A stretch of DNA of 24,084 bases from Parachlamydiaceae bacterium (GCA_037143085.1 JBAWZJ010000001.1:1-24084), one strand, 5' to 3'. Positions 3,723 to 22,909 are shown, counted from the stretch's first letter. Program-made: numbers and translations. Notes: generated by a model not told the origin, from the letters alone.

Positions 3723-3751
3723 GAAATACCTGATTATAAAAAAACATATAC

Positions 3752-3779
3752 CTTGACAGTGTACTAGTACACTGTCAAG
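3752..3779. repeat. Perfect 28-bp palindrome centred on CTAG
   Basis: cttgacagtgtactagtacactgtcaag equals its own reverse complement. Confidence 0.95.
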
Positions 3780-3929
3780 CTTGAATTTTGGGGTTTGGCT
3801 TGCGCGAAAGCTCCCGGGGTTGAACGATCAAAAAAGGGGTAGTATTAGTCAATACAACCCTTTTTTCGATCGATTCAACCGCGGGGCTTTGGCGCAGCCA
3901 AACCCCAAAATTCAATCTTGACAATGTAC
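3765..3929. repeat. Long palindromic element, family A (copy 1)
   Basis: Outer arms 3767-3800 / 3896-3929 pair with 2 mismatches, plus nested inner stems. Aligns with 21105-21270 with a single indel. Confidence 0.9.
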
Positions 3930-3940
3930 AGTGTCTAAAA

Positions 3941-4258
3941 TAGACCACTTACATAACTCAGAGGCTGGGAAAAAATTGGCAACCGCCGAAATTTGACCGT
4001 ATTTTTTGTCAGAATCCGAAAACTGCAAATTTTCTAACCACAGGCTGGTTAATGATTTACGATTTTCTGATTCTTGCGAAAAAGATGCCAAAGTCCGTGC
4101 ATTGACGATTTTTTCCCAGCCTCTCAGGCTCTGTCAATTTTCAACTTCAAATTGCAGGGGCAATATCAACTTTCGTATATGGCCCCTGTAATTTGAATAG
4201 AAAAGCGGGCAAAATAATCCCGAAAAAACAACGAACTCTGAGTTATACAAAAGGTCTA
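3941..4258. mobile_element. Long MITE-like structured element with family B termini
   Basis: Termini tagacc-acttacat-aactcagag / ctctgagttat-acaaa-aggtcta match the short family B copies. Internal 17-bp perfect stem 3960-3976 / 4108-4124 and 15-bp stem 4146-4160 / 4183-4197. No convincing ORF. Confidence 0.65.
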
Positions 4259-4283
4259 ATTAAGCGAATTCGCTTAATTAGAC
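4254..4283. repeat. Perfect 30-bp palindrome
   Basis: gtctaattaagcgaattcgcttaattagac equals its own reverse complement; 39 nt downstream of the rpmA stop. Confidence 0.95.
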
Positions 4284-4322
4284 ACTAAAAATGTATATCA
4301 TCGGTATATATTGAACGAGCGC

Positions 4323-4574
4323 TTAAGCTCCGGTGACGATAGAGATGTATGTTCTATCACTCTTACGGAATGCTACAATACCATCTGCCAAAGCAAAAAG
4401 AGTATCATCAGACCCTCTACCAACATTTTTCGATGGGAGCCATCTAGTTCCTCGTTGTCTAACGAGAATGCTTCCGGCTGTAACAGCCTGTCCACATCCA
4501 ACTTTCATACCCAAACGTTTTGAATGAGAATCGCGACCGTTTCGTGTAGACCCTTGTCCTTTCTTATGTGCCAT
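4323..4574 (-). CDS. rpmA: 50S ribosomal protein L27
   Basis: [24 protein letters not shown]...[12 protein letters not shown]...[12 protein letters not shown]. Confidence 0.99.
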
Positions 4575-4585
4575 GCTGTCCTTCC

Positions 4586-4894
4586 TTAACTTGCAATTTC
4601 AGTAATTTTCACACGTGAGTAGTGCTGGCGATGGCCAATCTTCTTACGGTGATTTCCCGGAATATATTTAACACTTGTAATTTTCGGCCCTGCAGAATAG
4701 CCAACAAGCTCACCTGCAACAAAAGCCCCCGGAACGCTAGGTTTGCCCACAACAGCTTTTGAGCCGCTATTAACAAATAGCACTTCGGTAAATTTCACAT
4801 TGGAACCAACTTCTTCTTTAAGCAATTCCACATCGATCTCATCGCCAACAGCAACGCGATACTGTTTTCCACCTGTTTTAATAATGGCGTACAT
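4586..4894 (-). CDS. rplU: 50S ribosomal protein L21 (true start at 4894, not 5008)
   Basis: [14 protein letters not shown]...[14 protein letters not shown]; AGGGAG RBS upstream of ATG 4894. Confidence 0.97.
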
Positions 4895-5041
4895 TGTTCT
4901 CTCCCTTAAGAGTAAATTTCGGCTTGCTTTCCTGCAAATTTCCAGGTCGCAAAACCATTCGTTTTCATCAGAATCACCAAGGATAACGAATCGGCTGTTT
5001 GAAATCAACTGAAAAACTTGTCTTTTACAAAACCGCCTATT

Positions 5042-8000
5042 TTACCCTCTCTCTTTCCCTGGTGAAAGCCGATCCATCATCACGTAAATCACTGGTGTTA
5101 TAAAAAGAGTTATCAACTGAGAAAGGAGCAATCCCCCAATAATCACTAAACCCAAAGGACGCCTAGCCCCGGCATTCGCACCGATACCTATAGCAATAGG
5201 CAAAGCTCCAAAGATCGCCGCCATCGTTGTCATCATGATTGGCCTAAAGCGGACCATACAAGCATCAATGATAGCATCTTTTGAGTTCATCTCTCGACTC
5301 CGAATGTTTTCCAACGCAAAATCGACCATCATAATCCCATTTTTTTTAACAATACCTATCAATAATACAATCCCAAGAAAAGCATACATAGATAATGGAA
5401 GTCCAAAAAGAAGTAATACTAATAATCCGCCCAGTGTTGCAGGGGGAAGGGTACTGAGTACTGTCAATGGATGAATGAAACTCTCGTAAAGCATCCCTAA
5501 AATAATATAAATCACAAAAATCGATACTAACAATAAAATCCCTGCACTAGAAATCGACTCTTGAAATGTCTCTATCGCTCCAATAGATTGAACCAAAACC
5601 CCTGGTTCAACAACTTCCTGTTTCAATTCTTCCAGTCTATCCAACCCATCGCCTAACGAAACTCCTGAAGCAAGATTGAAATCGATGGTAACGGAAGGAA
5701 ATTGGTCAATGTGATTGACACTTGAAGGACCAAGCCCTTCGCTCCACTTGGCAGCAGCACTCATCGGTACCAATTTATTTGAAATAGAGGAACGCATCCA
5801 TAGAAAATTAAAGGTGTCTGCGCTTTTTTGTTGCTCGGGAAGCAATTCTAGGATGATGTCGTATTGATCAATCGCCGTTTCAATTCTTGTTACATAGTTA
5901 TACGAGTATGAATGCATAAATGCCGTTTCGATATCCGTTGCAGTGATCCCATAAGAGGAAGCTTGGTCTCTCAAAATATTGACGTTAATCTGTGGAGAGT
6001 CAATTTCTAGGTCGCTATTCACCCCTTGAAATGTCGGATCTCCTTGCATCCGGCTGATTAATTTTTTTGCCGACGCATACACTTTGTCTGGATAGATGCT
6101 CTGCATAGCCAATTGATAGTCTCCACGGCTCTCTTGCCCTGTTGACAAATCGATCAAAGGAATATTTTTCATAAACACCTGTATTCCAGGAATTTTTCCA
6201 ATCTGTTGATTCAACTCTTTGATTACCTCTTTAATCGGCAGCCGTTTAGTTAAAGGTTTGAGTCGAATGAGATTTTGACCTTTCCTATATTCAGAGTAAG
6301 AACTGATAGCAACGGAAGATTCAACAGCTGGATTTTCTTTGATAATATTCATCACCTGTTTTTCATATTCCAGTAACTGGTAGGAAGACCCCGCCTCCTG
6401 CGTTTGGGTGTAGGCAATGAAAAATCCATCATCTTCATCGGGAAGGAAATCGATAGGGAGATAATAAAACAAAAATATCGTAGCCAAAAGACAAGCAGCA
6501 CCAACAAATAACGCCATGTATTCATGGTCTAAAACGGGAATTAACATTTTGCGGTAGCGTTCTCTCATTCTCAGATTGACCTTGTCTCCCCATTGCGTTA
6601 GCTTCCCTTTATGTTGCGTTACAGATAGAAAACGACTACATAACATAGGAGCTAAAGATAGCGACACAATACCGGAGATCACCGTAATCGCAGTCAACGT
6701 TAAAGCAAACTCCCTAAGAATTTTTCCTAATAATCCAGACATCAATAACATCGGAATGAATACAGCCACCAGAGATAAAGTCATCGAAACAATCGTAAAG
6801 CAAATCTGTCTGGCACCTTCAATAGCAGCATTGAAACGAGACATCCCCTGCTCTTGATGGCGCACAATATTTTCCAAGACAACAATGGCATCATCGATAA
6901 TAAACCCTACGGCAAGGATTAATCCTAGCAACGAAAGATTATTCAGGGTGAACCCCAAATAATTCATCACTATAAATGTACCGACAATAGAAATTGGTAA
7001 AACAACCGCTGGGATAATCGTGTCGGCGATTTTGCCAAAATAAAGAAAAATCACAACAACAACGAGGGCTATAGCCAAAATTAATGTCATATTGACATCG
7101 CTAATCGTCTCCCTAATAGATTCAGATCGATCAAAAAACGGTTTTAATGTAACAGCCGCCGGCAATTCTGTTTTTAGAGTATCTAGAAGGGCGTGAATTT
7201 GGTCGGAAATGGCAACAGTGTTAGCATTAGGCTCTTTTTGAATCGCAAGGAGGATTGTTGGCCTAGCACCGTCTGCATCGACATACTGAACATTAATTTT
7301 ATCATTTTGAAAACTCTCCACAGCTTGCCCAAGATCCTTAATCCGCAATGGTGTGCCGTTGCGGTAGGCTACAATGAGCTGATTCCACCCCTCCCCTGTC
7401 ACAATTTGACCGTCAACAGCTACATTTGGCGCTTCAATGGCTCCGTCAAGCTCCCCTGTCGGCAAGTTTGGGTTTCCCAAACTCATCGCTATAGCCAACT
7501 CTTCTAAAGTGATATCGCTAGCGACCATCCTCGCTGGATCAACTTGGATTCGAATCGCTAAAGGAGATCCAAAAACGGTCACTTGTGAGACGCCGCTAAG
7601 CATGGAGATCCGTTGTCCTATCAAATTATTTGCGTACGTATACAGATCATTCAAACGCATGGTTTCAGAAGTTAAGCTAATATAGATGATCGGCAACTCC
7701 GCCGGATTGACTTTTCGATACGTAGGGGCATAGGGAAGCTGTGGGGGTAATGTCGGCTGTGCTGTGATGATCGCAGATTGCACATCTTGAGCTGCGATCG
7801 TCATATCCTTTTCAATATCAAATTGAAGAACGATGCTGCTGCTTCCTAGAGTATTATTCGACCCCACAAATTTCACCCCGGGAATCGCCATAAACTGTTT
7901 TTCAAGAGGTAAAGCTACCGCTTGCGCCATCGTCTCCGGTGTTGCTCCCGGGTAGGAAACGCTAACATTAATCGTTGGATACGTGACGTCTGGCATATTG

Positions 8001-8104
8001 CTAATAGGTAAATTAATGTAGGCAAGTACACCTGCAAAAACAAGAGCAACAGCTAATAATGTTGTCATTATCGGTCGTAAAATAAACGGTGCTGACAAAT
8101 TCAT
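5042..8104 (-). CDS. RND efflux permease, MdtB/MdtC-like (paralog 2)
   Basis: 1020 aa; MNLSAPFILRPIMTTLL, YRKVNPA, GFIIDDAIVVLENI, GIVKKNGIMMVDFAL, RFRPIMMTT motifs. Confidence 0.96.
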   Translation of the reverse strand: MNLSAPFILRPIMTTLLAVALVFAGVLAYINLPISNMPDVTYPTINVSVSYPGATPETMAQAVALPLEKQFMAIPGVKFVGSNNTLGSSSIVLQFDIEKDMTIAAQDVQSAIITAQPTLPPQLPYAPTYRKVNPAELPIIYISLTSETMRLNDLYTYANNLIGQRISMLSGVSQVTVFGSPLAIRIQVDPARMVASDITLEELAIAMSLGNPNLPTGELDGAIEAPNVAVDGQIVTGEGWNQLIVAYRNGTPLRIKDLGQAVESFQNDKINVQYVDADGARPTILLAIQKEPNANTVAISDQIHALLDTLKTELPAAVTLKPFFDRSESIRETISDVNMTLILAIALVVVVIFLYFGKIADTIIPAVVLPISIVGTFIVMNYLGFTLNNLSLLGLILAVGFIIDDAIVVLENIVRHQEQGMSRFNAAIEGARQICFTIVSMTLSLVAVFIPMLLMSGLLGKILREFALTLTAITVISGIVSLSLAPMLCSRFLSVTQHKGKLTQWGDKVNLRMRERYRKMLIPVLDHEYMALFVGAACLLATIFLFYYLPIDFLPDEDDGFFIAYTQTQEAGSSYQLLEYEKQVMNIIKENPAVESSVAISSYSEYRKGQNLIRLKPLTKRLPIKEVIKELNQQIGKIPGIQVFMKNIPLIDLSTGQESRGDYQLAMQSIYPDKVYASAKKLISRMQGDPTFQGVNSDLEIDSPQINVNILRDQASSYGITATDIETAFMHSYSYNYVTRIETAIDQYDIILELLPEQQKSADTFNFLWMRSSISNKLVPMSAAAKWSEGLGPSSVNHIDQFPSVTIDFNLASGVSLGDGLDRLEELKQEVVEPGVLVQSIGAIETFQESISSAGILLLVSIFVIYIILGMLYESFIHPLTVLSTLPPATLGGLLVLLLFGLPLSMYAFLGIVLLIGIVKKNGIMMVDFALENIRSREMNSKDAIIDACMVRFRPIMMTTMAAIFGALPIAIGIGANAGARRPLGLVIIGGLLLSQLITLFITPVIYVMMDRLSPGKERG

Positions 8105-11100
8105 ATTTTCAAGGTTACCCTTTCGTTAATACGCTCCATAGCCAAGTAAATAATTGGCGTAACAAATAAAGTCACTAACTGAGAAAAAAGCAATCCTCCG
8201 ATAATCACCAATCCAAGTGGACTACGCGCAGAAGCATTAGCTCCCAAACCAAGTGCTATGGGCAAAACACCAAAAATTGCTGCTGCTGTCGTCATCATGA
8301 TTGGACGGAAACGAGCAGTGCACGCATCTAAAATGGCATTTTCAGGAGACATCCCTTTATGGCGAATATTGTCCAAGGCAAAGTCGACAACCATAATCCC
8401 ATTTTTCTTTACAATGCCTATCAGCAAGACTATCCCTAAGAAGGAATAAAGAGATAACGGCAAGCCAAAGATAAGTAAAGTCAAAAGTCCTCCAAATGTT
8501 GCTGGTGGCAATGTGGTCAATATTGTAATCGGGTGAATGTAACTTTCGTAGAGAATGCCCAAAATAATATAGATAGCGAAAATGGTCAATAGGAGTAAAT
8601 ATCCCGCACTTTTAATCGATTCATTAAACGTTTGAGCGGCGCCAATTGGACGCGCAGTGATGCCTGGCAAAACAACCTCTCCTGTAATTTTTTTAATTTT
8701 CTCAAGAGCTGTCTCTAAGGCCACCCCCGGCGCAAGATTAAATGAAACGACGACGGAAGGGAATTGGTTGATATGATTGACACTAGAGGCTCCTAATCCG
8801 ATATCTATGTCAATCGCTGCACTCAAAGGAACCAATTTATCCGATATTATGGAGCGGAGCCACACATTATTCAAAATATCCACCTGCCGTTGATATTCCG
8901 GATAAAGCTCCAAGATCACGTAGTATTGATCAATAGATGTTTGTATTTTCGAGATAAAATTTCCTGAAAAGCTATAGGAAAAAGCTTCTTCTATATTATT
9001 TGCCGTCAGCCCCAACGTCGATGCTTTGTCGCGTAAAATATTGATATTGACCTGAGGAGTCGTCACTTCCATATCACTATTGACTCCTTGAAAAATAGGA
9101 TCTTTCTTCATCTTCTCTATCAAATCCCCTGCCGATCGGTAAAGCTTATCTGCAGATAGTCCTTGCAAGGCAAATTGATATGCAGCCCTACTCTCTTGCC
9201 CTGTTGCCAGGTCTATCAAAGGGATGTTTTTGATAAAACCTTGCAAACCATCGATTTGTTGCATATCTTTATAAATCCCTTGTATCACCTGCTGCATCGG
9301 CTGCCTTTTATCTAAAGGTTTAAGATGAACAAGGTTTAATCCCTTCCGATATTCCGAATATGAGCTAATAGCCACTAACCTATCGACCGCCGGATTATTT
9401 CTAAGGACATGGGCTAATTTATTTTCGTTTTCCAACATACTATAAGACGATCCCCCCTCTCTCTCCTGTGTATAAATCACGAAGAAACCAAGATCTTCAT
9501 TCGGAACGAAATCGGTTGGGAGATAGGAAAGAAGCAACACAGTCGATAGTGTACACAACAGGGCGACGACGATGGCTGTCAAACGATGGTGAAGAACAGA
9601 GACGAGGGCTTTGCGATATTTTTTTTCCATCCATCCATTCAGTCGATTCGACCACTCAGAAGCCTTAGCCCCATTTTTTCGAGGCGGAATAAAACGACTG
9701 CAAAGCATTGGCGTCAATGTCAATGAAACTATTCCAGAAATCAAAGTAATTACCGTCAATGTGATAGCAAACTCCTTGAAAATTTTACCGATCAATCCTC
9801 CCATAAAAAGCATGGGAATAAATACAGCAATGAGGGAAAGGCTCATCGATACGATAGTAAAACAAATCTGACGAGACCCTTCCATTGACGCTTGAAAAGG
9901 AGTCTCTCCCGACTCTATACGTCTAATGATATTTTCTAACACCACAACGGCGTCATCAATAATGAATCCTACAGCCAAGGTTAACGCCAAAACAGAAAGG
10001 CTATCTAAAGTAAAATTAAGCACAAACATCACTATAAATGTGGCTATCACCGATGCCGGAAGTGCTAAAGAAGGAATAATCGTATCCCTGACTTTCCCCA
10101 AAAAAAAGAAAATCACCAATATGACAAGAAGTAACGAGACAACCAAAGTCTTCATTGCATCATCAATGGCTTCTCGAACAGCAATCGAGCGGTCAAATAC
10201 AATGTGAAGATCAATCGCCAGCGGAATCTCTGTTTTTATCGAATCTAAAAGCTTATAAATGTTATCAGCTATAGCAACAGTATTCGCATCCGGCGCCCGT
10301 TGTATCGCAAGAGTAACCGTAGGTTCGACCTCATCCCCTTCAATATATTGGGAATAAATCTTATTGTTTGCGAAATTGTCTATGGCACGCCCAAGATCGC
10401 GAATACGGACAGGTGAACCATTTCGGTAAGTCACAATCATTTGTTCGTAATCTGCACCTGTCATCAGTTGTCCATCGACAGACACTATAGGAGCCGCAAC
10501 ATCTCCATCAAGCTGCCCTGTAGCAATAAAGGCGTTCTGTAGTTTGATCATGTCAGCAAGCTCATTCAATGTGACATTATGGGTAACAAGTTTCCCCGGA
10601 TCAACTTGGACCCTAACAGCCAACAAAGAGCCAAATGTTGACACTTGAGAGACCCCTTCAATCATAGAGATCCGCTGCCCTATCACGGTATTACCATAAG
10701 TATAAAGGTCTGCACGCGACATGGTCTTTGAAGTCAGAGAAATGTAAATGATGGGCATTTCTGCAGGGTTAACTTTCCTGTATGTCGGACCAAAGGGAAG
10801 ATTCGGAGGCAAATAGGGAATCGCACTTGTAATTGCTTCTTGAACATCTTGAGCCGCTGTTGTCATGTCTTTGTCGATTTCAAACTGCAAAATAATGCTT
10901 GTATTTCCAAGAGTGCTATTTGAGCTTACAAGACGTAACCCTGGAATCCCCATAAACTGTTTTTCTAGAGGTAGAGCAACAGAATTGGCCATCGTTTGCG
11001 GTAAGGCTCCGGGAAACGAAGTTTTAACATTAATTGTCGGATAAGCAACATTTGGCATGCTGCTGATAGGCAAAGCATTATAAGCTAATATCCCAGCAAC

Positions 11101-11166
11101 AACCAATGCCAACATAGCCAAGGTGGTCATCACCGGACGTCGAATAAATGGAGCAGAGAGATTCAT
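8101..11166 (-). CDS. RND efflux permease, MdtB/MdtC-like (paralog 1)
   Basis: 1021 aa with the same RND motifs (IIDDAVVVLENI, GIVKKNG, RFRPIMMTT); 4-nt overlap with the downstream paralog. Confidence 0.96.
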   Translation of the reverse strand: MNLSAPFIRRPVMTTLAMLALVVAGILAYNALPISSMPNVAYPTINVKTSFPGALPQTMANSVALPLEKQFMGIPGLRLVSSNSTLGNTSIILQFEIDKDMTTAAQDVQEAITSAIPYLPPNLPFGPTYRKVNPAEMPIIYISLTSKTMSRADLYTYGNTVIGQRISMIEGVSQVSTFGSLLAVRVQVDPGKLVTHNVTLNELADMIKLQNAFIATGQLDGDVAAPIVSVDGQLMTGADYEQMIVTYRNGSPVRIRDLGRAIDNFANNKIYSQYIEGDEVEPTVTLAIQRAPDANTVAIADNIYKLLDSIKTEIPLAIDLHIVFDRSIAVREAIDDAMKTLVVSLLLVILVIFFFLGKVRDTIIPSLALPASVIATFIVMFVLNFTLDSLSVLALTLAVGFIIDDAVVVLENIIRRIESGETPFQASMEGSRQICFTIVSMSLSLIAVFIPMLFMGGLIGKIFKEFAITLTVITLISGIVSLTLTPMLCSRFIPPRKNGAKASEWSNRLNGWMEKKYRKALVSVLHHRLTAIVVALLCTLSTVLLLSYLPTDFVPNEDLGFFVIYTQEREGGSSYSMLENENKLAHVLRNNPAVDRLVAISSYSEYRKGLNLVHLKPLDKRQPMQQVIQGIYKDMQQIDGLQGFIKNIPLIDLATGQESRAAYQFALQGLSADKLYRSAGDLIEKMKKDPIFQGVNSDMEVTTPQVNINILRDKASTLGLTANNIEEAFSYSFSGNFISKIQTSIDQYYVILELYPEYQRQVDILNNVWLRSIISDKLVPLSAAIDIDIGLGASSVNHINQFPSVVVSFNLAPGVALETALEKIKKITGEVVLPGITARPIGAAQTFNESIKSAGYLLLLTIFAIYIILGILYESYIHPITILTTLPPATFGGLLTLLIFGLPLSLYSFLGIVLLIGIVKKNGIMVVDFALDNIRHKGMSPENAILDACTARFRPIMMTTAAAIFGVLPIALGLGANASARSPLGLVIIGGLLFSQLVTLFVTPIIYLAMERINERVTLKI

Positions 11167-12254
11167 TATTTTGAAGCCGGTGCGGTGATAACGATCATCC
11201 CCGGAGCAATGTTGATTTGACCATCAACGACAACGCTGTCGCCAACCTTCAAGTCTGGGGAAGCCACTGCTATATACGCTTCGGTACGAGTTAAAACATC
11301 AACATTATGCGCTGAAACTTTCTGTTCTCCATCCATTTTATAAAGGTACGCACCGTTTTTACCAATTAAAACGGCTCCGGGAGGTACGACAAGAGCCATT
11401 GGAGCGGTGGATTGCAACACCTTAACCTTAATAAATTCTCCGGGCCATAACACCCACTCCGAATTCGAACACCTTCCTTTTAAAAGGATTGTCCCTGTGT
11501 CCTGGTTCACCTGATTATCGATGAAATAAGTCTTTCCTTCGAACGGTATTTTAGGTTTTTCCGGCAAAACGGCAATAAAAGGCCATATTCCTTCATTTCC
11601 CTGTTTCAGACGAATGGCTTCAAACTGCTGCTGAGATAGCGAAAACATGATATCTATTGGATCAAACGGACGGATCACCGTGATCGCAGTTGGATCGTAT
11701 GCTGTGACCACATTTCCTGGATAAATATTGAAGTAGCTGATTTTTCCGGAAACGGGAGCAAGGACCTGGCAGAAATCGAGATTAATTTGAGCTGCAACAA
11801 TAGCAGCAATATCCAATTCGACTTGCGCCTGGGCAGCTTTGGCATTTCCTTCATACTGTTCCCATGTCAACTGCGAGATAAAATCTTCTTCGACAACGGT
11901 TTTATATCTCTTCACTGTGAGTTCAGCAACTTCCAATAAAGCCTGGTCATGGAGCAGCTGAGCTTTTGCTTCATCTAAAATAGCTTGATAAGGGCGCGGA
12001 TCGATCATATAAAGGAGATCGCCTTCCTTTACGATTGCCCCTTGCTCGACATAAGCTTTCAACAACTTTCCTTGCACTTGCGGACTGATAGCAACCTCTA
12101 CCGGAGGAATGACTTGTCCAATCGTGTCGATATAAACAGGAACGTCATACTGTTGCACAAGAGCTGTAGTCACATTTGGAGGATCATTTTTTGGTTTTGG
12201 CGATCCATGACATCCAGTCACCAACAATACAATTAAAACTAATACGAAATTCAT
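11166..12254 (-). CDS. RND periplasmic adaptor (MdtA-like membrane fusion lipoprotein)
   Basis: Lipobox LVTGC, lipoyl-like motifs QVQGKLLKAYVEQGAIVKEGDLLYMIDPRPY and APVSGKI, IDNQVNQDTGTILLKG, LWPGEF. Confidence 0.95.
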   Translation of the reverse strand: MNFVLVLIVLLVTGCHGSPKPKNDPPNVTTALVQQYDVPVYIDTIGQVIPPVEVAISPQVQGKLLKAYVEQGAIVKEGDLLYMIDPRPYQAILDEAKAQLLHDQALLEVAELTVKRYKTVVEEDFISQLTWEQYEGNAKAAQAQVELDIAAIVAAQINLDFCQVLAPVSGKISYFNIYPGNVVTAYDPTAITVIRPFDPIDIMFSLSQQQFEAIRLKQGNEGIWPFIAVLPEKPKIPFEGKTYFIDNQVNQDTGTILLKGRCSNSEWVLWPGEFIKVKVLQSTAPMALVVPPGAVLIGKNGAYLYKMDGEQKVSAHNVDVLTRTEAYIAVASPDLKVGDSVVVDGQINIAPGMIVITAPASK

Positions 12255-12257
12255 AAG

Positions 12258-13829
12258 TCAGCTCTCAGCTTTATCTTTAAAAGGAATATTAAATAATTCT
12301 TTAGGAGGCGTTTCTCTCCAGTGCCCTTTGGTCTCATCCAAAACACCAACGGAAAATGCTAGGTTAGCCAGTGAGGCAGCCCACTGGGTCCTTGTCACAA
12401 TAAGCTGAGCGCGGGCATTGCTCAGTGTTGTCAAGGCATTGAGAACATCAAGAATAGATGCCGTCCCCACCTTGTACTGAGATAAATAGCCTCTAAAGGC
12501 GCGCTCGCTAAACTCTAAATTAGCTATACTTGATGGCAATGCCGCAACAGCGGAGGTAAATGCATAGTAATTGGTCACAACTTCGCTAGCAACCGTCGAT
12601 AGCTGAACATCTAGATTAGCCAATGCCTCCTGCACCTGATTGCGCATCTGCTTGAGCTGGTTTTTGTAATAAAACCCTTGAAAGATTGGGACGTTTAAGT
12701 TGATGGAGATGTTGTTGTTATGCCCATCGGCAATGGGATTATGGATAAAATGCAATCGACTCCATTGCGCGTTGGTCGAGACTGTGGGCATTCCTGCAGA
12801 AAAAGAAATATCCCTCATCGCCTCTTGTTGTTTTACAACAGCTATCGCTGCACCGATATCCGGTCGTTTATGCTTGGCTACCTCTAAAAGATGATCCAAG
12901 TCGCCTGATATTTCAATTACAGGAAGTTGATCCGGTAGGCTTTCAACAGATAATTTTGTTTCTGGAGCTAACCCCACAGCAATTACTAGCTCCCCAAGAG
13001 ATGTTTTTTCTTCCCCTTGAGCGTAAATAAGGGTTGTCCGTGCTTGTTCAACAGCAGCTTGAGCTTGCAACACATCTGTCATTGTTGCCAAACCGGCATT
13101 TCGCATCGTCAAGGCTGCCTTCAGAGACATTTCAGCATCTTTCAGATTTTGTTCATCAGCGGCGACAAGAGCTTTATTTCCGTTATAACTTGTATAATAG
13201 TCCAACACATTCATCATTACCTGCTGCAATGTGAAATTGTGTTGCCAATTGGCTTGATAGAGTGTTTCCAATGCCAATGTTGCTTGTGCATCTCTACCGC
13301 CAAAATCGAACATCAACCAGCTGGCTGTCACCTCATTGAAATTTGTATCTATTTGACTGTTCCCCGATATAGCAGCAGTAGTCGGTCCCCTTGCTGTCGT
13401 TCCGGTATTTGAAAGAGCTGTAGCTTGAGTGGCGCTCGTCACTGTACTTCCGGAGCTAGCTCCAATGGTATCACTCTCTGCCGTTAACGTTGAAGTGAAG
13501 GCTATAGCCGGATAATATTCGCTTAAGGAAGTCCGGTAAGCATAGGCAGAAGCCCTGGCTGCATACCAACTTGAGCGTGTGGAAGGATTATTGAATAAAG
13601 CAATATCGAGCAATTTAGCGACAGATATTGTTGAGGAGAGATCTTCTGCAGTAAAGGGGCGTACAACAGTCTGCTTGGGGTAAGTGATCGACTTTCCTTT
13701 CCACTCAGATCCAGGAGAACTTGGAGCGTCACCACTAAAAGAAGGATCATAGGTAAACTCGTTACACCCCACCAACAAAGACAGCAAGAAGGCACTAAAA
13801 ATGGTGTATACCGAAAGCGATTGAAGCAT
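12258..13829 (-). CDS. TolC-family outer membrane efflux lipoprotein
   Basis: IALFNNPS, WLMFDFGG, RPDI, LNVPIFQG, YKVGTASILDVLNA motifs; lipobox LVGC 22 aa after ATG 13829. The ORF track extends to 13925, so the start is uncertain. Confidence 0.92.
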   Translation of the reverse strand: MLQSLSVYTIFSAFLLSLLVGCNEFTYDPSFSGDAPSSPGSEWKGKSITYPKQTVVRPFTAEDLSSTISVAKLLDIALFNNPSTRSSWYAARASAYAYRTSLSEYYPAIAFTSTLTAESDTIGASSGSTVTSATQATALSNTGTTARGPTTAAISGNSQIDTNFNEVTASWLMFDFGGRDAQATLALETLYQANWQHNFTLQQVMMNVLDYYTSYNGNKALVAADEQNLKDAEMSLKAALTMRNAGLATMTDVLQAQAAVEQARTTLIYAQGEEKTSLGELVIAVGLAPETKLSVESLPDQLPVIEISGDLDHLLEVAKHKRPDIGAAIAVVKQQEAMRDISFSAGMPTVSTNAQWSRLHFIHNPIADGHNNNISINLNVPIFQGFYYKNQLKQMRNQVQEALANLDVQLSTVASEVVTNYYAFTSAVAALPSSIANLEFSERAFRGYLSQYKVGTASILDVLNALTTLSNARAQLIVTRTQWAASLANLAFSVGVLDETKGHWRETPPKELFNIPFKDKAES

Positions 13830-14048
13830 TGAGTTTAGACTGACACAAAGTTTTTTACGATCGCATGATCGTAAATTTAACGCAGTCGAAATTTCAATTT
13901 TTGAACCTCGCTTGGTATAACTCATGAAATTTGTAATCCAGGTTAAAATATAACCGATCCTGGCATTGTAAAAAAATATTTACTAATATATCAAGAAATA
14001 TACTATTCATAGCTCAAAATGAGAATTTTGGCTAACGTCAAAGGTCTA

Positions 14049-16307
14049 CTAATCGAAATGGCACTCCGTATTCCCTGTGGTCGAACTGAAGGAACATCTT
14101 TGGTACCCGAATTTCGTCTTAAACAGAAAAAACTTATTGTTTTTTTGCATCTCCGCCCAGTATCGGTCACAGACATAATGTGTCGTTCGCAGCTTGATCA
14201 GTTTCTCATAGCCGTCACGAAAATAAAACAACACCTTTTCTGCCCCTTTTCTGTTGAGGAGATATGCTGAACAAGTTGTACATTCCTGATAAGATAGCAA
14301 AAGGAGGTCGTCGTATTCTTTTATTTCGTGATATTTGCTTGAATTCAGCAAACAAACTTCATAATCGTACTGTCTATCGAAAAACAGTTTCAACCTCTTT
14401 AAATTACCTTCTATATCAGCTGTAAATGTAACGTCATCTTCTAAAATTAGACACGTCTGATGGATCCCTTTCAAAAAGTCTTCGACCATATTCCCATGAT
14501 TTTTTGTACAACTCGCATGGGCATCAAAAGATTTATCACCAGTGATAGACTCTCTTTTAACCTTATAATGACAAATTCGATTTAACGGAGCCCTCACCCG
14601 ACAAAGTTCAGAGAGTATCTCCATGTAACGGTCAACTCTTTCCTCCAAATTCAAAATATAAACAACCCCTATGGATTCCCAAGCTGGATCATATTCAAAT
14701 TTGGAATGCTTCAGGTCTTTAAAATATAAAGGATGACGCCAAATTTTATTGCTATAGGGTAAGTTGTTGTGTGCATGGTGATAGTTTCCATAAACGATAA
14801 CCAATTCATTATCTTTCGGTTCTCTAAGAGGGTCTGTCGTCGCAATAATTTGCCGACCTGTCTCCCTTAGTTTATCTATCAAACCATTGCTATGTTCAAT
14901 AATCGATTCATCAACAAGAAGGCAATCGAAATATTGATATAGCTGACACGCCTCTTCTATCTTATTTTGAGAAACTAATTCGTTAATCGATGAGAGGAGT
15001 TGTTCTCTATTTAAGACCCTGAAATCATCAACGCTTATACCATCATCAGAATTATTTAGAGCTGTTGCTAAAGGAGAGTAAGACAACACAGAGAAAAGCG
15101 TTATTAACATGAAGAAAAACATAGCAAATCGATCTGAGATCATATATCGAAACCTTTTAATAGTGATACGGAACAAAAGTAAAGGTAACTGCCAGAGACT
15201 GGCGAGATTAAATTCATTCGCCAGTGTCGTCGGATAGGTAAAAAACTGCAAAAGCAATGAACTGGAAGGATACAGTCGACGATGCGCGCACCAAATCCTT
15301 TTAAAATGCCATAAAATCACACTTTTTGGTTCTATAGTCATGTATTTTTCCTTTGTCACAACTGCATATTCGAAATGTTCAAATTGCGAAAATGGAATCT
15401 TTTGCAAATCTTCTAAAACTGATGCAGGAATGTGAATATCACATTCTTTTTGTAGAAACTCAAGACTTTTGAAAAGGCGCAAGCTAACCTCCCGCTTTTT
15501 TGCCTCCTCTAACAGGGAAGGCCAAAGGATCTGATCTCCTGCTTTTTTCACGATCATATGCGCATCGACAATCCAGCGCATTGGATGCAAAAGATTCCAC
15601 CGATATCCATGCATACATGTGTGGAACAAATGATCGGTATGTGAAAGGGTCAATGTCGGTTGGGACCTAAACATCAAAGGAACAGCCCGCTGCCAAAACA
15701 CCCCATCATCACAATATTCAGGAAAAAGACGCCAGTGCAAATCGAGTTCATACCCTTTGGGATCGACAAATGTACAAGCGTGTGAGGACTGCTTATAATT
15801 TTTCTTCAAAGGCATTGTTTTAACAACATGTGCATGAGAATGAGCTTTAATCTGCCATCCGTTTTCCAGCAACAAATCTATAGCTTCATCAACACGGTCA
15901 AGAGGGATCAAAACATCACCATCAACCATGGCACGAGTATAGGGATCAGGATAATACACATAACTTAGTGCCACCCCTTTTAGCAATATTGTAGGAATAT
16001 TTTTTGCATGAAGAACTCCTAAAACACGCTCTACAGAGTGGAATAACATTTGGTTGCAGAATAAATTCCTTTTATAAATCCCTTTGAGTTTTTGCATATC
16101 AGGATCGTCCGCAGAAGCGCGCTGTAACGTATAGTAAAGCATCGGCAAAAGACGAAAAACAGAATCATCGATACTCTCTAAATTAGATTCCTTTTTCCAT
16201 TCACCCCAGGCAGCAGCAACGTTTGGAGACTCAGACAAACAGATTTTTATCAGTTCCAACTGTTTCTGAGTGGGTAGGCATCCGCCGATGTTTTCTGTGA
16301 TATGCAT
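14049..16307 (-). CDS. Nucleotidyltransferase (NTP_transf_5-like) fused via a hydrophobic segment to a GT25-like glycosyltransferase domain
   Basis: N-half ILLKGVAL..R-M-D-DVLI, ELDLHWRL, HTCMHG..RWIVD. C-half VYILNLEERVDR, SCTKNH, LILEDDVTF, AYLLNRKGAEK. Confidence 0.85.
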   Translation of the reverse strand: MHITENIGGCLPTQKQLELIKICLSESPNVAAAWGEWKKESNLESIDDSVFRLLPMLYYTLQRASADDPDMQKLKGIYKRNLFCNQMLFHSVERVLGVLHAKNIPTILLKGVALSYVYYPDPYTRAMVDGDVLIPLDRVDEAIDLLLENGWQIKAHSHAHVVKTMPLKKNYKQSSHACTFVDPKGYELDLHWRLFPEYCDDGVFWQRAVPLMFRSQPTLTLSHTDHLFHTCMHGYRWNLLHPMRWIVDAHMIVKKAGDQILWPSLLEEAKKREVSLRLFKSLEFLQKECDIHIPASVLEDLQKIPFSQFEHFEYAVVTKEKYMTIEPKSVILWHFKRIWCAHRRLYPSSSLLLQFFTYPTTLANEFNLASLWQLPLLLFRITIKRFRYMISDRFAMFFFMLITLFSVLSYSPLATALNNSDDGISVDDFRVLNREQLLSSINELVSQNKIEEACQLYQYFDCLLVDESIIEHSNGLIDKLRETGRQIIATTDPLREPKDNELVIVYGNYHHAHNNLPYSNKIWRHPLYFKDLKHSKFEYDPAWESIGVVYILNLEERVDRYMEILSELCRVRAPLNRICHYKVKRESITGDKSFDAHASCTKNHGNMVEDFLKGIHQTCLILEDDVTFTADIEGNLKRLKLFFDRQYDYEVCLLNSSKYHEIKEYDDLLLLSYQECTTCSAYLLNRKGAEKVLFYFRDGYEKLIKLRTTHYVCDRYWAEMQKNNKFFLFKTKFGYQRCSFSSTTGNTECHFD

Positions 16308-16308
16308 T

Positions 16309-16995
16309 TTATACTTTTCGCCTGCGATCTAACATTGCTTTAACAACATGTAAATACTCATACCGTTGATGTTTTAACTGTATCCCCATGTTGTTACCAT
16401 GAATGCGACGTCGAGCAAGCACATCTTTAATCAACAGACTTTTGCACCCTTTATCTTTAGCCCTGCCATACCAATCAAGAAATTCTCCAATTTCAATATG
16501 GGTTGGGAAATTTCCAGCGTGCAAGAGAGCCTCTTTCCGGATCATTAAGGTGGAAGCACAATAACCTGCCATCACTTGTCCATCCCCTTTTATTCGTTTT
16601 TTACGCTCCTCATCCAGTTCAGAACTTATGAATTGTTCTATCATAGTAAAAACCATCGAAACATCAGGATATAGCAACAAAGTTTCCAATTGCTTTTCAA
16701 GCTTTAAAGGATGCCATAGATCGTCTCCGTCAAGGAACGTCACCACATCACCACGAGCGAGGGCAATTCCTGCATTTCGTGCAGCCCCTAACCTCTGGTT
16801 CGTTTGATAGTGATAGATTAATTTATCGCCGTAAGATCTAGCAATATTTCCTGTATTATCAGTAGAGCCGTCATCAACAACGATCAATTCGAAATTTTTC
16901 CATGTTTGCGCAAGCACGCTTTCAATCGTATCGGCTAAATATGCCTGGCTATTGTAAGCATTAATAATCACGCCCACTAAACTGTCATTTTTCAT
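16309..16995 (-). CDS. GT2 (GT-A fold) glycosyltransferase
   Basis: VIINAYN, IVVDDGSTD, ARNAGI, FLDGDD, RRRIH motifs. Confidence 0.95.
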   Translation of the reverse strand: MKNDSLVGVIINAYNSQAYLADTIESVLAQTWKNFELIVVDDGSTDNTGNIARSYGDKLIYHYQTNQRLGAARNAGIALARGDVVTFLDGDDLWHPLKLEKQLETLLLYPDVSMVFTMIEQFISSELDEERKKRIKGDGQVMAGYCASTLMIRKEALLHAGNFPTHIEIGEFLDWYGRAKDKGCKSLLIKDVLARRRIHGNNMGIQLKHQRYEYLHVVKAMLDRRRKV

Positions 16996-17692
16996 GCATT
17001 AGCCCTTCTCGTTGCCTTACTATCGATTTTCTAATTATATGCAAAAGATCACGATGCAAGGGAACAACGTTAGCCGATTCATTAGCATTATGTATGCGTT
17101 TGTAAAACAAAATATCGGGCATGTGCCCTACCGGAATTTTCATATCTTTGGCAGTAAAAAACCAAGCCGAATCGTCACCTCCGCTCCGATACTGTTCGTC
17201 AAAGAATCCCACCTTATTAAACACACTCCTACGTCCAAGCAATGTGCCTAGCAAATAACCAGCATGGTCTCCTTCCAGCCTCTCCGGGTTAAGCCAGCTT
17301 GGACAAGACATTCCTGATTGAACAAATAACTTTTGCCTACATAATACGTAATCGATATTTTGATTCATTTCGAGATAAAAGACTTGTTTCGATGTTTTAT
17401 CCGCAGTCCAGATATCATCCTGATCAAGAAAAGTGATAAACTCCCCTTTTGCGTTTCTCAACCCTACATTTCTCGCAACGGCCACACCTCTATTCTTTTG
17501 CACAATCAGTGTAACCTTATCCTTAAACTTAGATACAATATCAAGACTTGTATCCGTTGATCCATCGTCTATTAAAAGGATTTCCATTGGGTTATAATCT
17601 TGTGCAAACACACTCTGAAGAGTTTCTTCTAGATAAGCCGCTCCATTATAAATAGGTATAATAACACTGACAAGCGGTCTATTTAGCATCAT
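16985..17692 (-). CDS. GT2 (GT-A fold) glycosyltransferase
   Basis: VSVIIPIYNG, IDDGSTD, ARNVGL, FLDQDD, KRIH. GGAG RBS before tandem ATGs at 17692/17689. Confidence 0.95.
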   Translation of the reverse strand: MMLNRPLVSVIIPIYNGAAYLEETLQSVFAQDYNPMEILLIDDGSTDTSLDIVSKFKDKVTLIVQKNRGVAVARNVGLRNAKGEFITFLDQDDIWTADKTSKQVFYLEMNQNIDYVLCRQKLFVQSGMSCPSWLNPERLEGDHAGYLLGTLLGRRSVFNKVGFFDEQYRSGGDDSAWFFTAKDMKIPVGHMPDILFYKRIHNANESANVVPLHRDLLHIIRKSIVRQREGLMHEK

Positions 17693-18410
17693 CAAACTCC
17701 GAAAGAGGTACAAGATTTAAGGCTTTACCCTGATTCATCAATTGACGGCGATTGATGGATCGCTTCAAGGCTGAAAAAAATGTGAGATCGTAATGGTTAT
17801 TCTCTCTAGTCATATTTGAAGAATGTTGTTGATAGAGGAGATTGATTTCTTTCATAATCGCAATTTTAATTCCAGACTCACGAACGCGGAAAAACCAATC
17901 AAGATCCTCAGCAAATCGTAGCGATTCGTCAAAAAGACCCACTTTATCAAAAACTTCTTTGTGAACTAATAGAGCTCCCAAATTGACATTTAAAAGTCCG
18001 TTCTCTTCGCCGTGATGAATAGGCATATTTTTTGCCCCTTTTAGCCTGATATATTTTATACGACCTGTCACAATCTTAAGCGAACTATCAGACCTCAACC
18101 TGGCCAATTGCAACGCAAGTTTATCATCCGGCCATTCGTCATCCGCATCCAGAAAAGCGATGATGTCGCCTTTTGCCTGTTTAATTCCAAAATTTCGCGC
18201 AGCAGCAGGTCCTTTGTTATTTTGTCTAAGGAAAATGATATCTTTGCCTAAAGTTTTAACTCGTTCTCCGATATTGTCGCTTGACCCATCATCAATTAAA
18301 ATAATCTCTAAAAAAGGGTAATTCTGCCTTCTTATACTTTTAAGGGCTTCTTCGATGAACTGACCTGCATTAAAATAAGGGATGATGACACTAATACTCC
18401 ATTCAGCCAT
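17679..18410 (-). CDS. GT2 (GT-A fold) glycosyltransferase
   Basis: ISVIIPYFN, IDDGSSD, ARNFGI, FLDADD, EDLDW. ATG 18410 overlaps the kinase stop (translational coupling). Confidence 0.95.
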   Translation of the reverse strand: MAEWSISVIIPYFNAGQFIEEALKSIRRQNYPFLEIILIDDGSSDNIGERVKTLGKDIIFLRQNNKGPAAARNFGIKQAKGDIIAFLDADDEWPDDKLALQLARLRSDSSLKIVTGRIKYIRLKGAKNMPIHHGEENGLLNVNLGALLVHKEVFDKVGLFDESLRFAEDLDWFFRVRESGIKIAIMKEINLLYQQHSSNMTRENNHYDLTFFSALKRSINRRQLMNQGKALNLVPLSEFDDAK

Positions 18411-19479
18411 TAGAACGCTCCAAGAAATCAGCAATAAGATAAGGAATTTGCTCCACATCTGTACCTAGGTCTAGCCAAAAATTAGGGACAGATGTTGTAA
18501 GTAAGCGCATTTTATCAAAAGCTATCTTACCATCCCCCTCAAGATGCAACACCGTTGTTGGAGCAAGCGCCAACAACGATTCGGCGCTACTGGCTTGTCG
18601 AATCCTGGAATTTTTTTGGTGAGTCACACGCGGCAAAAATATAGCCTTAATTGGGAATCCTGCAGAGAGCTTCTCTGGAAAATGTTCATTCAGAAAAAAC
18701 AAAGCTTTTTCGCTAGACAAACTCTCTTTATTGCTAATTTTTTCAGATAGATGAGGCAGCATGTTTACACTATTAGGAACGAGCTTTCCAGTATTATAAA
18801 GGCTATAGACAAAAGGAATTGGTTCATTAGAAATCATCACATAATCATCACCCACATACTTCAAACCTGACCGAACACAGCTGAGGGCTGTTGTCGATTT
18901 TCCCGATCCACTTTTCCCCGTTAATAAAATTCCCCCTTTATCGAAGCCTACAGCCCCCGCGTGGACTAGCTGGAAAGGACGGAGCTTGCTCCACCAGTGA
19001 ATGATACAACGCATCGGGAAACTCATCTCCCAATAAGGCAGTATTCTCGGATGTTGCATCCAATAGATTCCGAGCCGACGACGGTTGTTGTACATGTGCA
19101 AGATAGAGTTATCAGGATTATAAACAGTTCGTATGACCTCATTGTTAAAGCCTTGAATATGCCCCCTTGGACCGTAAGCTGTCATCAGCCATGGAGGTGG
19201 AGGCATGGGAGTATCTGTAGAGTCGCAGTCCCAACAATTAATAGTTAATGAAGGGAGACAAGGAGGAAGTTCAAGATGAGAAAACGCCATGGATAGCGAT
19301 TTTAGCAGAGCTTCACCTGCAAACCTCAAACAAAGAACCTCGGATCCCAACCGGTAATAACGGCGTATATCTGCAGAGTTTGACACCGCCTTTTCGAAAG
19401 CAATTTCCACTTCCTCAAAATAGCCTTCGGGACGTCGAGTAGCTGGCAGAACAAATTCCGCTATTTGCAGGGTTTCCAT
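18403..19479 (-). CDS. HPr kinase-like serine kinase
   Basis: LVHAGAV...GILLTGKSGSGKSTTAL...YVGDDYV, the HprK-type His / Walker A / DD arrangement. GAAGGTG RBS before ATG 19479. Confidence 0.9.
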   Translation of the reverse strand: METLQIAEFVLPATRRPEGYFEEVEIAFEKAVSNSADIRRYYRLGSEVLCLRFAGEALLKSLSMAFSHLELPPCLPSLTINCWDCDSTDTPMPPPPWLMTAYGPRGHIQGFNNEVIRTVYNPDNSILHMYNNRRRLGIYWMQHPRILPYWEMSFPMRCIIHWWSKLRPFQLVHAGAVGFDKGGILLTGKSGSGKSTTALSCVRSGLKYVGDDYVMISNEPIPFVYSLYNTGKLVPNSVNMLPHLSEKISNKESLSSEKALFFLNEHFPEKLSAGFPIKAIFLPRVTHQKNSRIRQASSAESLLALAPTTVLHLEGDGKIAFDKMRLLTTSVPNFWLDLGTDVEQIPYLIADFLERSNG

Positions 19480-19487
19480 AAACACCT

Positions 19488-19928
19488 TCAAAATTTTTCT
19501 AGAGTGTTCTGAGCAAAATGAGGCCACCCCTGTTCACTGATTTCATGAATGGGGTCGAGCAATAACAGCTCTTGCATATCGTTAAAAACAGTCAATTCTG
19601 GAGGATTGTAAACCATCTCTTTTGACTCTACCATTACCTGTTCTTTCACAGGTAAAGTCTCAACCGAAATAATGAGTTGTTCTTCTAAAAGATGGTCTAA
19701 AAAAACCTTCAAAGAAGCTTTAGCGGTCTCAGAAGATATCGAGAACTGTTCGCTCATAATCGCAGTTATTTGTTCCTCATTGAATCCATTTTGGATAAGC
19801 TGCCAGAGATAAGCTCCAGAGTCATTCATTGAATAATAATTCCCGTGTTCTAGATTGATAACGACAGCTTCGCCGTCGATAACTTCGTGAATTACGTTGA
19901 GATGGCTAATGTAATATCTTGAAGACAT
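19488..19928 (-). CDS. PqqD-family RiPP recognition element with C-terminal peptide extension (146 aa)
   Basis: VIHEVIDGEAVVINLEHGNYYSMNDSGAYLWQLI...FLDHLLEEQLI is a typical RRE pattern. AAAGGA RBS before ATG 19928; the track start at 20120 is an over-extension overlapping the divergent gene. Confidence 0.9.
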   Translation of the reverse strand: MSSRYYISHLNVIHEVIDGEAVVINLEHGNYYSMNDSGAYLWQLIQNGFNEEQITAIMSEQFSISSETAKASLKVFLDHLLEEQLIISVETLPVKEQVMVESKEMVYNPPELTVFNDMQELLLLDPIHEISEQGWPHFAQNTLEKF

Positions 19929-20030
19929 AAGATGATATCCTTTAAACATAAAGAGGTTTATGACTGGAAATCTAACAAAAGAATATTTTACATGTAAAGT
20001 CGTAAAATTTTGACTGCAAAAGGAATTTCG

Positions 20031-21038
20031 ATGGTTTTTAAAAAGGAAAAAGGACGTATCTTTTATTTCTGTCCAGATTCTGCTATTCCCTCCGGGGGCA
20101 TAAAAAAGATCTATCAACATGTCGATCTACTAAACGAGCTGGGATTTTCAGCATTTGTTGTGCACAACAAACCCGGATTCCGCTGTTCCTGGTTCGATAA
20201 TACAACGCCGATAGCCTATTTGTATAAGGTTGAAAAATCCCTACTTATTCTTGGTCCAGGAAAACAGCAAAAACAACTAGACGCACTTTCTTCAGAAGAT
20301 ATTCTTGTTTATCCTGAAGTCACCCCAGAAAAAACAATACAACAGGTGATGGATTTAGGATTTTACACAGTTATTTTCAACCAAAACGCTTATTATACGT
20401 TCCTAGCCTCCTCCTCTATTTACAAAGGCGAAAATGTCTTAGGAGCAATCGTGGTCTCAGAAGACAGCAAGAAGTATCTAGAGTACACTCTACCCTCTCT
20501 CAGCACTTTCCGGATTCATATATCTATTGATTTCAACATTTTCTCTTTTCAAGTAGCGAAGAAAAAACAGATTGCCTATATGCCACGTAAATGTGAAAGC
20601 GATTCCCATCAGATTATTAGCATATTAAATGAGCGTGGTCTGTTAAAAGATTGGAAGGTCGTGCCAATTGATAATATGTCTGAAAGAGAAGTCGCCCATA
20701 TTCTTAAAGAAAGCGCTATTTTCCTCAGTTTTTCTCATGCAGAAGGGTTTGGTTTGCCTCCGGTAGAGGCTATTTCATGCGGATGTCTTGTCATCGGCTA
20801 TCACGGAGGCGGAGGGAGAGAATATTTCCAAGGAGATTCGATTTTTCCCATCGTTCAAGGAGAAATCATCGAGTATGTCAAAACTGTTGAAAAAGTTACC
20901 CTTAATTACAATCAGGAAGCGACACATTACGCTGAAGCAACAGCATTGGCGAGCATCCTGATTCAAAATATTTACTCGCTCAAAAAAGAAAAAGAGGACT
21001 TAAAAAACGCCTGGGAATCGATTTTATACCGAAAATAA
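20031..21038 (+). CDS. GT4-like (GT-B fold) glycosyltransferase, divergent from the PqqD gene
   Basis: PSGGIKKIYQHVDLLN, IAYMPRK, EGFGLPPVEAISCGCLVIGYHGGGG. AAAGGA RBS before ATG 20031. Confidence 0.92.
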   Translation: MVFKKEKGRIFYFCPDSAIPSGGIKKIYQHVDLLNELGFSAFVVHNKPGFRCSWFDNTTPIAYLYKVEKSLLILGPGKQQKQLDALSSEDILVYPEVTPEKTIQQVMDLGFYTVIFNQNAYYTFLASSSIYKGENVLGAIVVSEDSKKYLEYTLPSLSTFRIHISIDFNIFSFQVAKKKQIAYMPRKCESDSHQIISILNERGLLKDWKVVPIDNMSEREVAHILKESAIFLSFSHAEGFGLPPVEAISCGCLVIGYHGGGGREYFQGDSIFPIVQGEIIEYVKTVEKVTLNYNQEATHYAEATALASILIQNIYSLKKEKEDLKNAWESILYRK

Positions 21039-21049
21039 TTCAAAATTTA

Positions 21050-21110
21050 GCGTTTCTAGTGCTCCAAAACTTTCCAAATTTCAACAGGAACTAGGGAGTG
21101 TACCTAGTAC
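21050..21110. repeat. Short repeat, family C (copy 1)
   Basis: gcgtttctagtgc..cca...tttcaac.ggaactagg-N7-cctagtac; an inverted counterpart lies at 22717-22767. Confidence 0.75.
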
Positions 21111-21270
21111 ACTGTTTCACTTAAATTGTCTGATTTGGCTAGCGTGAAAGCTTCCGCGGTTCGAAGGTCGAAAATGGGTTAGTATGAGGCAATACAACCC
21201 CATTTTCGACCTTCGAACCCCGGGGCTTTGACGCAGTCAAATCAGACAATTTAAGTGAAACAGTGTACTA
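21105..21270. repeat. Long palindromic element, family A (copy 2), CTAG at both ends
   Basis: 36-bp outer stem 21105-21140 / 21235-21270 with one G-T pair; perfect 15-bp inner stem 21162-21176 / 21201-21215; homologous to 3765-3929. Confidence 0.9.
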
Positions 21271-21302
21271 GTATATTTGAGAAAAATAAACCGTTATAAG
21301 AT

Positions 21303-22716: not shown

Positions 22717-22767
22717 GTACTAGGGAATGTACCTAGTTCCAGTTGAAAGTTGGTGCACTAGAAACGC
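22717..22767. repeat. Short repeat, family C (copy 2, inverted relative to copy 1)
   Basis: Reverse complement gcgtttctagtgcaccaactttcaactggaactagg-tacattc-cctagtac matches 21050-21110. Confidence 0.75.
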
Positions 22768-22909
22768 CAGTTTTTGAATTACGTTCGGTATAATCCCATG
22801 TACAGAATTAGGATGAATCAAAAAAAATAGATAGACAATTATATTTAGAACTTTCATCTTCCCTATTTTGGTTAAACACTAAACAACACTACATACCAAT
22901 ATTATTAAA

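Follow-up and report, generated by a model that had tools for sequence, protein, structure and literature searches.

Whole-length hairpin elements of an environmental Parachlamydiaceae bacterium, probably TA-inserting MITEs, share an asymmetric core with families that differ in ends and target duplications

Small, non-coding elements that occur in many copies, carry terminal inverted repeats (TIRs) and duplicate a TA target include RUP of Streptococcus pneumoniae (with IS630-Spn1) and the "Stowaway-like" miniature inverted-repeat transposable elements (MITEs) of the IS630/Tc1-mariner type; CTAG is the classic IS630 target. The Correia elements (CREE/NEMIS) of Neisseria and ERIC/YPAL of the enterobacteria are palindromic intergenic repeats of 100-170 bp that also insert at TA, reach many copies, are conserved across related genera, and occur in long as well as internally deleted short forms. 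Here we describe two hairpin elements, designated family A, in a stretch of 24,084 nt (hereafter the window) from a Parachlamydiaceae bacterium (GCA_037143085.1, JBAWZJ010000001.1:1-24084), an organism known from lake-water metagenomes for which the public runs are DNA only. Both elements are in all likelihood non-autonomous DNA transposons, i.e., MITEs with short TIRs, no coding capacity and a TA duplication in CTAG, the arms of which are kept alike at the DNA level. Family A is one family in a superfamily of ~162-168-bp whole-length hairpin MITEs that extends across environmental Chlamydiota.

The chlamydial elements share the traits listed above with RUP and the IS630/Tc1-mariner MITEs, and the ends of a sister family (family D) match those of a chlamydial IS630-type insertion sequence; they differ in that each is a hairpin over its whole length, in that the interior is not derived from that insertion sequence and is the same in families with TWA and 5-bp duplications, and in that a partner of family A was not found. 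With regard to RUP, the likeness is architectural only; likeness to Correia and ERIC/YPAL is likewise only architectural, and the host phylum is a different one. We know of no description, for Correia, ERIC or YPAL, of conserved asymmetric GC-rich boxes or of module shuffling between end classes. Full-text searches of the accessible literature found no description of such elements in Chlamydiae; the Waddlia genome paper counts only repeats >200 bp (PMC2878342).

The window is contig C1 of genome G000 (2.3 Mb in 433 contigs, 41% GC, 89.5% complete) and comes from a k=141 assembly. An initial annotation, made by a model from the sequence alone, had reported two hairpin elements in it, and both lie where it placed them. 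The orientation of an element is defined unambiguously through its boxes, and the + strand of copy 1 is the "top" strand in this sense. The parts of the two copies are as follows.

3767-3929, + strand: family A element, copy 1, 163 bp, GTACACTGT...ACAATGTAC; covariance model score 156.9 bits on + and 127.8 bits on -
3765-3766, no strand: left TA of the target duplication of copy 1, within CTAG 3764-3767; the right TA is lost (3930-3931 is AG)
3751-3764, + strand: solo right-end remnant of an older family A copy, ccttgacagtgtac, adjoining copy 1
3802-3819, + strand: left core box of copy 1, gcgcGaaagcTcccgGgg; bears the bulged T, the G that enters the G.G mismatch, and a G at the third asymmetric site
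3842-3855, + strand: apical helix and loop of copy 1, gtattagtcaatac; semi-conserved apex [A/G]TATTA..AATA[C/T]
3879-3895, + strand: right core box of copy 1, ccgcggggctttGgcgc
21107-21268, + strand: family A element, copy 2, 162 bp, near-perfect hairpin; covariance model score 177.9 bits on + and 137.4 bits on -
21105-21106, no strand: left TA of the target duplication of copy 2, CTAG 21104-21107
21269-21270, no strand: right TA of the target duplication of copy 2, CTAG 21268-21271
21142-21159, + strand: left core box of copy 2, gcgtGaaagcTtccgCgg
21218-21234, + strand: right core box of copy 2, ccCcggggctttGacgc

Both copies lack coding capacity and fold over their 162-163 bp as one nearly continuous hairpin of ~80 bp, with folding energies of -115.5 (copy 1) and -124.5 kcal/mol (copy 2), compared with ~-44 kcal/mol for dinucleotide shuffles (z of -16.7 and -21.9, respectively). 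From the outside inwards, an element consists of family-specific ends and outer arms, a conserved GC-rich box pair, a variable inner stem and a semi-conserved AT-rich apex. The two copies differ at 9 of 18 positions of the outer left arm, and each of these 9 differences has its mirror image in the right arm; the inner stems are rewritten with pairing retained, gcgc/gcgc in one copy stands against gcgt/acgc in the other, and the G.G mismatch and bulged T are found in both. The initial annotation was accurate in each of these respects, as it was for the conserved boxes, all of which match those it quoted, while its alignment of the copies with one indel holds for the interior (a single internal indel) and also needs differences at the ends, where the right TAG of copy 1 is gone. 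Copy 1 has one additional C/A mismatch, at outer-arm position 5, and a G.G in place of the C.C mismatch discussed below.

Collection of genomic copies by blastn and nhmmer seeded with the two window copies, a check that the initial annotation had proposed, returned 162 non-overlapping loci in the 2.3 Mb, many of them at contig ends; a blastn search of a plasmid collection gave no match. About 16 of these loci are complete family A copies (fragments come in addition), with the ends CTAGTAC[A/G][C/T]TGT...ACA[G/A][T/C]GTACTAG, and every complete family A copy has the TIRs GTAC[A/G][C/T]TGT...ACA[G/A][T/C]GTAC. Of the 14 elements that end in this way, 13 have junctions that read cTA/GTAC...GTAC/TAg (slashes mark the element borders) and flanks that are otherwise unrelated; the exception is window copy 1, which is without the right-hand TAG because another repeat abuts there. 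The family A flanks are a TA duplication inside a CTAG target, such as transposases of the IS630/Tc1-mariner type leave on insertion when they act in trans. The remaining loci have the interior GCGNGAAAGCTCCCGCGG...CCCCGGGGCTTTGGCGC in common with family A and differ from it in their ends.

Family A: ends TAGTACACTGT
Family B: ends TATACTGGTTCCAG, TA-flanked
Family C: ends GGGACTGG (GGGACTG), 3-bp TWA duplications
Family D: ends TATACCGAACGT, TA-flanked
Family E: ends ACTCACCTTACGCAAA, 5-bp duplications in at least 10 copies

Complete end pairs are nearly always 160-168 bp apart in all families, and a covariance model trained on CTAG-type elements matches families B-E over their full length, with 135 hits among the 150 candidates scored, of 1235. 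Counts of family ends imply that the genome probably contains ~450 elements, or ~3% of its length. Newer copies insert into the terminal CTAG of older ones, which yields tandem stacks sharing a CTAG (C226) as well as the small palindrome to the left of copy 1, where the remnant at 3751-3764 and the copy 1 junction form a 28-bp palindrome. Short derivatives also occur and could arise through central deletions; C333 is a 61-nt perfect palindrome without the core, whereas others retain part of a box. Four 77-nt derivatives of a D-like family are present in a long-read complete genome (L144 at G041:C1:347726-347802 and three similar sites); they appear to have arisen via deletion between two GGGGCT direct repeats, one located in the left arm and the other in the right box, and, as there are four occurrences, may themselves have transposed.

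Target duplications bear directly on one of the three readings offered by the initial annotation, namely that the elements are REPIN-like or IS200/IS605-like substrates moved as folded single-stranded DNA by a Y1 (RAYT/TnpA) enzyme. In their conserved mismatches and bulge, the hairpins do recall the structure-specific recognition of IS608 ends and of REPs. However, Y1 elements make no target duplications, whereas TA, TWA or 5-bp duplications are present here; the Y1_Tnp domain (PF01797) was not found in the genome, nor was a transposase or RAYT with family A ends; the bias towards the lagging strand that such a mechanism predicts is absent (92 versus 89 elements relative to the GC-skew strand); and the elements are single hairpins of 165 bp rather than REP doublets. 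We thus regard movement by a Y1 enzyme as the most improbable of the explanations considered.

The pairing of the arms is maintained in a way that extends well beyond the two window copies. An alignment of 29 CTAG-type elements, drawn from many genomes, has 93.3% of its cells paired, compared with 72.9% in shuffles and 33-47% when partners are slid; changes occur on both sides in 50 of 69 pairs, and double-change cells number 397, against 130 in shuffles and against ~45 G-U cells out of 1987. Over 198 distinct elements, complementarity between the arms of an element is 85-89%, while homologous arms of different elements are only 57-60% alike, and pairing is therefore maintained; these values come from an aligned comparison, since a gapless comparison of arms underestimates pairing owing to 1-nt offsets. 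These counts bear out the proposal of the initial annotation that structure is kept rather than stem sequence.

Covariation of this strength, together with the very low folding energy, is what would be expected if the elements were structured non-coding RNAs (ncRNAs), i.e., small-RNA genes or cis-regulatory RNAs with stems co-varying under selection on the RNA fold, and the apex of copy 1 resembles a two-way terminator (A-run, GC stem, T-run). Mismatches of the G.U type are rare, however, and on the top strand are no commoner than A.C (G.T plus T.G versus A.C plus C.A: outer arms, 249 versus 244; inner stems, 126 versus 184). Orientation is also without bias relative to neighbouring genes (33 same and 43 opposite; 34 convergent and 36 divergent), as it is relative to the replication strand, and this symmetry of covariation and orientation argues against an RNA that acts in one strand as well as against a single-strand mechanism of the IS200/REPIN type. 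No Rfam family is matched at the gathering score, the only matches being to miRNA-hairpin models at 25-40 bits (thresholds 60-90). Inverted-repeat ends, target duplications, hundreds of copies and the persistence of hybrids with unpaired outer arms likewise do not fit an ncRNA, and this explanation appears very unlikely.

The third reading of the initial annotation, arm-to-arm templated copying, fits best. Some copies carry, in place of one box, the exact complement of the other, so that all three box asymmetries are gone at once; 3 LL and 4 RR copies of this kind stand against 64 canonical ones in this genome, one symmetrised copy is present in a long-read complete genome, and symmetrised boxes are found in ~10% of copies. 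Such copies are direct evidence of conversion templated by the other arm or by an inverted copy. Known counterparts are the template-switch correction of quasipalindromes in Escherichia coli and arm-to-arm gene conversion in large palindromes, where changes are mirrored regardless of strand, as the symmetrised copies (LL and RR) and the rarity of wobble intermediates would suggest for the chlamydial elements; unlike these elements, quasipalindrome correction is a mutational mechanism and not an element family, it alone fails to explain the surviving box asymmetries, and it is only proposed here. The arms of one copy could be kept alike through such templated correction within the element (quasipalindrome or foldback copying), through preferential spread of well-paired masters, or through both.

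Compensation holds in both window copies; it is not universal, since 4 of the 12 family A copies compared in the genome have left and right outer arms of different types. Among these 12 copies, inner-stem types combine freely with outer-arm types, and genome-wide 15% of elements have discordant outer arms and 2% discordant inner stems. All discordant cases join arms of two known families or subtypes (e.g., C62 combines an E-type left with an A-type right arm), and the breakpoints of the hybrids are located at the conserved boxes. Uncompensated changes in further copies, which the initial annotation had named as evidence against maintained structure, do therefore exist in the form of these hybrids, but they resemble recombinants and not decay. 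An assembly artefact is unlikely as a general cause of hybrids because the contig of the window was assembled with k=141, because hybrid C256 and window copy 2, the copy nearest to it over the part they have in common, are only 95% identical, so that C256 is not an assembly chimera of that copy, and because a hybrid is also found in a long-read complete chromosome. Hybrids could simply stem from deletion or conversion at the shared core, between copies that are neighbours or dispersed; the modules would in this way be reshuffled by recombination or deletion at the conserved boxes.

The core is not confined to the genome under study. Its pattern occurs in more than 116 stretches of a species-representative collection, nearly all of them from metagenome-assembled genomes of environmental Chlamydiae, and carriers include Parachlamydiaceae, Waddliaceae, Rhabdochlamydiaceae, Simkaniaceae and Protochlamydia. 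Even sampling of the phylum finds the pattern in 42 of 301 genomes and in 32 of 165 genera, while a reversed-pattern control gave 0; none of 30 genomes of the 1.0-1.4-Mb family taken as Chlamydiaceae carries it. Some carriers have implausible names for fragmented environmental assemblies ("Chlamydia trachomatis isolate MaH-04nov19-293", "Waddlia chondrophila WSU 86-1044 isolate MH-21oct19-270"), and others are labelled Verrucomicrobiae, Acidobacteriota or archaeon; these labels are probably taxonomic misassignments of chlamydial bins.

Among the 198 distinct elements, the G.G mismatch is present in 194 and the C.C mismatch in 177, and the bulged T is also kept, in all families and across genera; the boxes and the three asymmetries are identical in families with TA, TWA and 5-bp duplications. 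As the asymmetries persist in ~90% of copies phylum-wide, and neutral, frequent correction would erase them, something else constrains the boxes. Candidate causes are that the masters that spread are the asymmetric ones, that perfectly paired cores are unstable, or that the boxes are a binding site. A further-reaching proposal, which we put forward tentatively and consider rather doubtful, is that the core (two GC-rich boxes with invariant G.G, bulged T and C.C, and an AT-rich apex) might be a selected module, recognised by a protein in folded or duplex form and passed among MITE families of at least three transposition chemistries across environmental Chlamydiota. Viewed as a function, and with the same low probability, this module could be a protein site in a hairpin, cruciform or duplex, a stabiliser or a terminator, exchanged as cargo between MITE families, and it would be compatible with the elements being MITEs. 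Boxes and asymmetries common to TA, TWA and 5-bp families, presence in 32 of 165 genera, near-invariance of the mismatches next to stems that are only 57-60% alike between elements, a constant total length of 160-168 bp in all families, and the ~30-40 bits by which the covariance model scores the top strand above the bottom strand all point in this direction. By contrast, orientation is unbiased relative to genes and replication strand, solo cores are absent, no binding protein, transcript or phenotype is known, and the conservation could partly mirror a recent horizontal spread of few master copies. If the proposal is true, the superfamily would be defined by its cargo and not by its transposase, and the boxes would at the same time be the sites of recombination through which arms are shuffled.

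Two other accounts of the core were considered and rejected. It is not an independent nested mobile element, since no solo cores were found and each core lies between arms of a known family. An attC-like reading of the motifs GTTGAAC/ATTCAAC failed on the order of the motifs, which does not fit, and on their lack of conservation from copy to copy.

With regard to the enzyme that moves the elements, DDE_3 (PF13358) matches are found in 59 of 201 genomes of the phylum sample. One of these genomes (G099) has an intact, TA-flanked IS630-type insertion sequence of 1115 bp with ends TACCCAAGGAAATTCAAAAGTTGGCA, which are identical to family D ends at 22 of 26 nt, a score reached by 0 of 2000 shuffles. 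This match, together with the TA duplication in family A, leads us to infer that family A was likewise moved by a transposase of the IS630/Tc1-mariner type. Several candidate partners were rejected: an IS630 in G157 (end GTACTTCCACTTGAAACTT) resembles family A ends no better than shuffles do, an IS630 fragment in G143 has no significant match to them, the four DDE_Tnp_1 contigs of the present genome have unrelated ends, and the 0.7-3.9-kb intervals between family D ends contain ordinary genes.

Five observations weigh against identification of the elements as MITEs kept paired by templated correction. The IS630-type DDE_3 domain was not found in the genome under study (89.5% complete) or in five near-complete carriers (G041-G045); no autonomous element with family A ends was found among the DDE_Tnp_1 contigs of the genome and the IS630s of G143 and G157; window copy 1 is without its right TA; searches of lake metagenome contigs and same-strain assemblies found no exact filled and empty site pair for either window copy; and frequent neutral arm-to-arm correction leaves the persistence of the three box asymmetries unexplained. 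As to the site comparison, the lake metagenome contigs have repeat-induced joints, and the other assemblies with an identical L27 protein are all of the same strain, with contigs that break or misjoin in repeats. On the supporting side, G001, a genome of the same genus, is without the entire stack of repeats between obg and rpmA, its spacer there being ~84 bp long and that of the present genome ~600 bp; at ~75% identity the junction is not alignable base by base.

Genes neighbouring the elements include rho, obg, rplU/rpmA, acrB and a gene of the Legionella_OMP family, and these exclude a cyanobacterial host, as do the hits of the core in Chlamydiae. Directly after copy 1, at 3930-4290, lies a further element of ~320-350 nt, bounded by agtgtcta (3930-3937) and tagacact (4279-4286); it occupies the place of the right TAG of copy 1, and copies of its interior are present at many sites in G001. 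Right arms of types 1 and 3, as in copy 1 (3918-3923), C226 and C73, have cTTGACAgtgtacTAg at their end, an outward-facing, -35-like TTGACA ~9 nt from the element end, which, judged from its sequence, could form hybrid promoters with flanking -10 boxes. Around copy 2, family D ends (TATACCGAA...) are found at 21025 and, inverted, at 22792 (about 22750-22792), flanking copy 2 and a beta-propeller gene, and to the left of copy 2 (21025-21103) a truncated D arm is followed by a B-type right-arm remnant and then by family A; this arrangement is a stack of broken elements and not a single composite unit. Positions 14049-21038 hold a run of glycosyltransferase and nucleotidyltransferase genes, of which 20010-21038 was confirmed as a GT1/GT4-family gene. 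Metagenome contigs that match the window up to ~14033 continue into GCTTCAAAGCCCCGGGATTGAAAAATCGCG, a superfamily core, with one joint running from 14027 to 21134; a superfamily copy or fragment is probably present near 14000, upstream of the gene at 14049-16307.

Overall, the feature is real and statistically overwhelming, and its nature is ordinary, most likely that of a new family of IS630-style, TA-inserting MITE. The present analysis adds family A itself, the asymmetric core common to TA, TWA and 5-bp families, and evidence for compensation at the DNA level combined with module shuffling. For the genome, the elements pad conserved gene junctions such as rpmA-obg, and, with many copies at contig ends, they are probably a main reason for the assembly into 433 contigs. 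Annotation of chlamydial metagenome-assembled genomes would gain from a covariance model of the family, with which hundreds of false "structured RNA" candidates would be masked. The presence of one conserved asymmetric core across families that differ in ends and target duplications is unusual, and makes these elements a tractable case for asking how long palindromes stay paired and what the interior of a MITE does.

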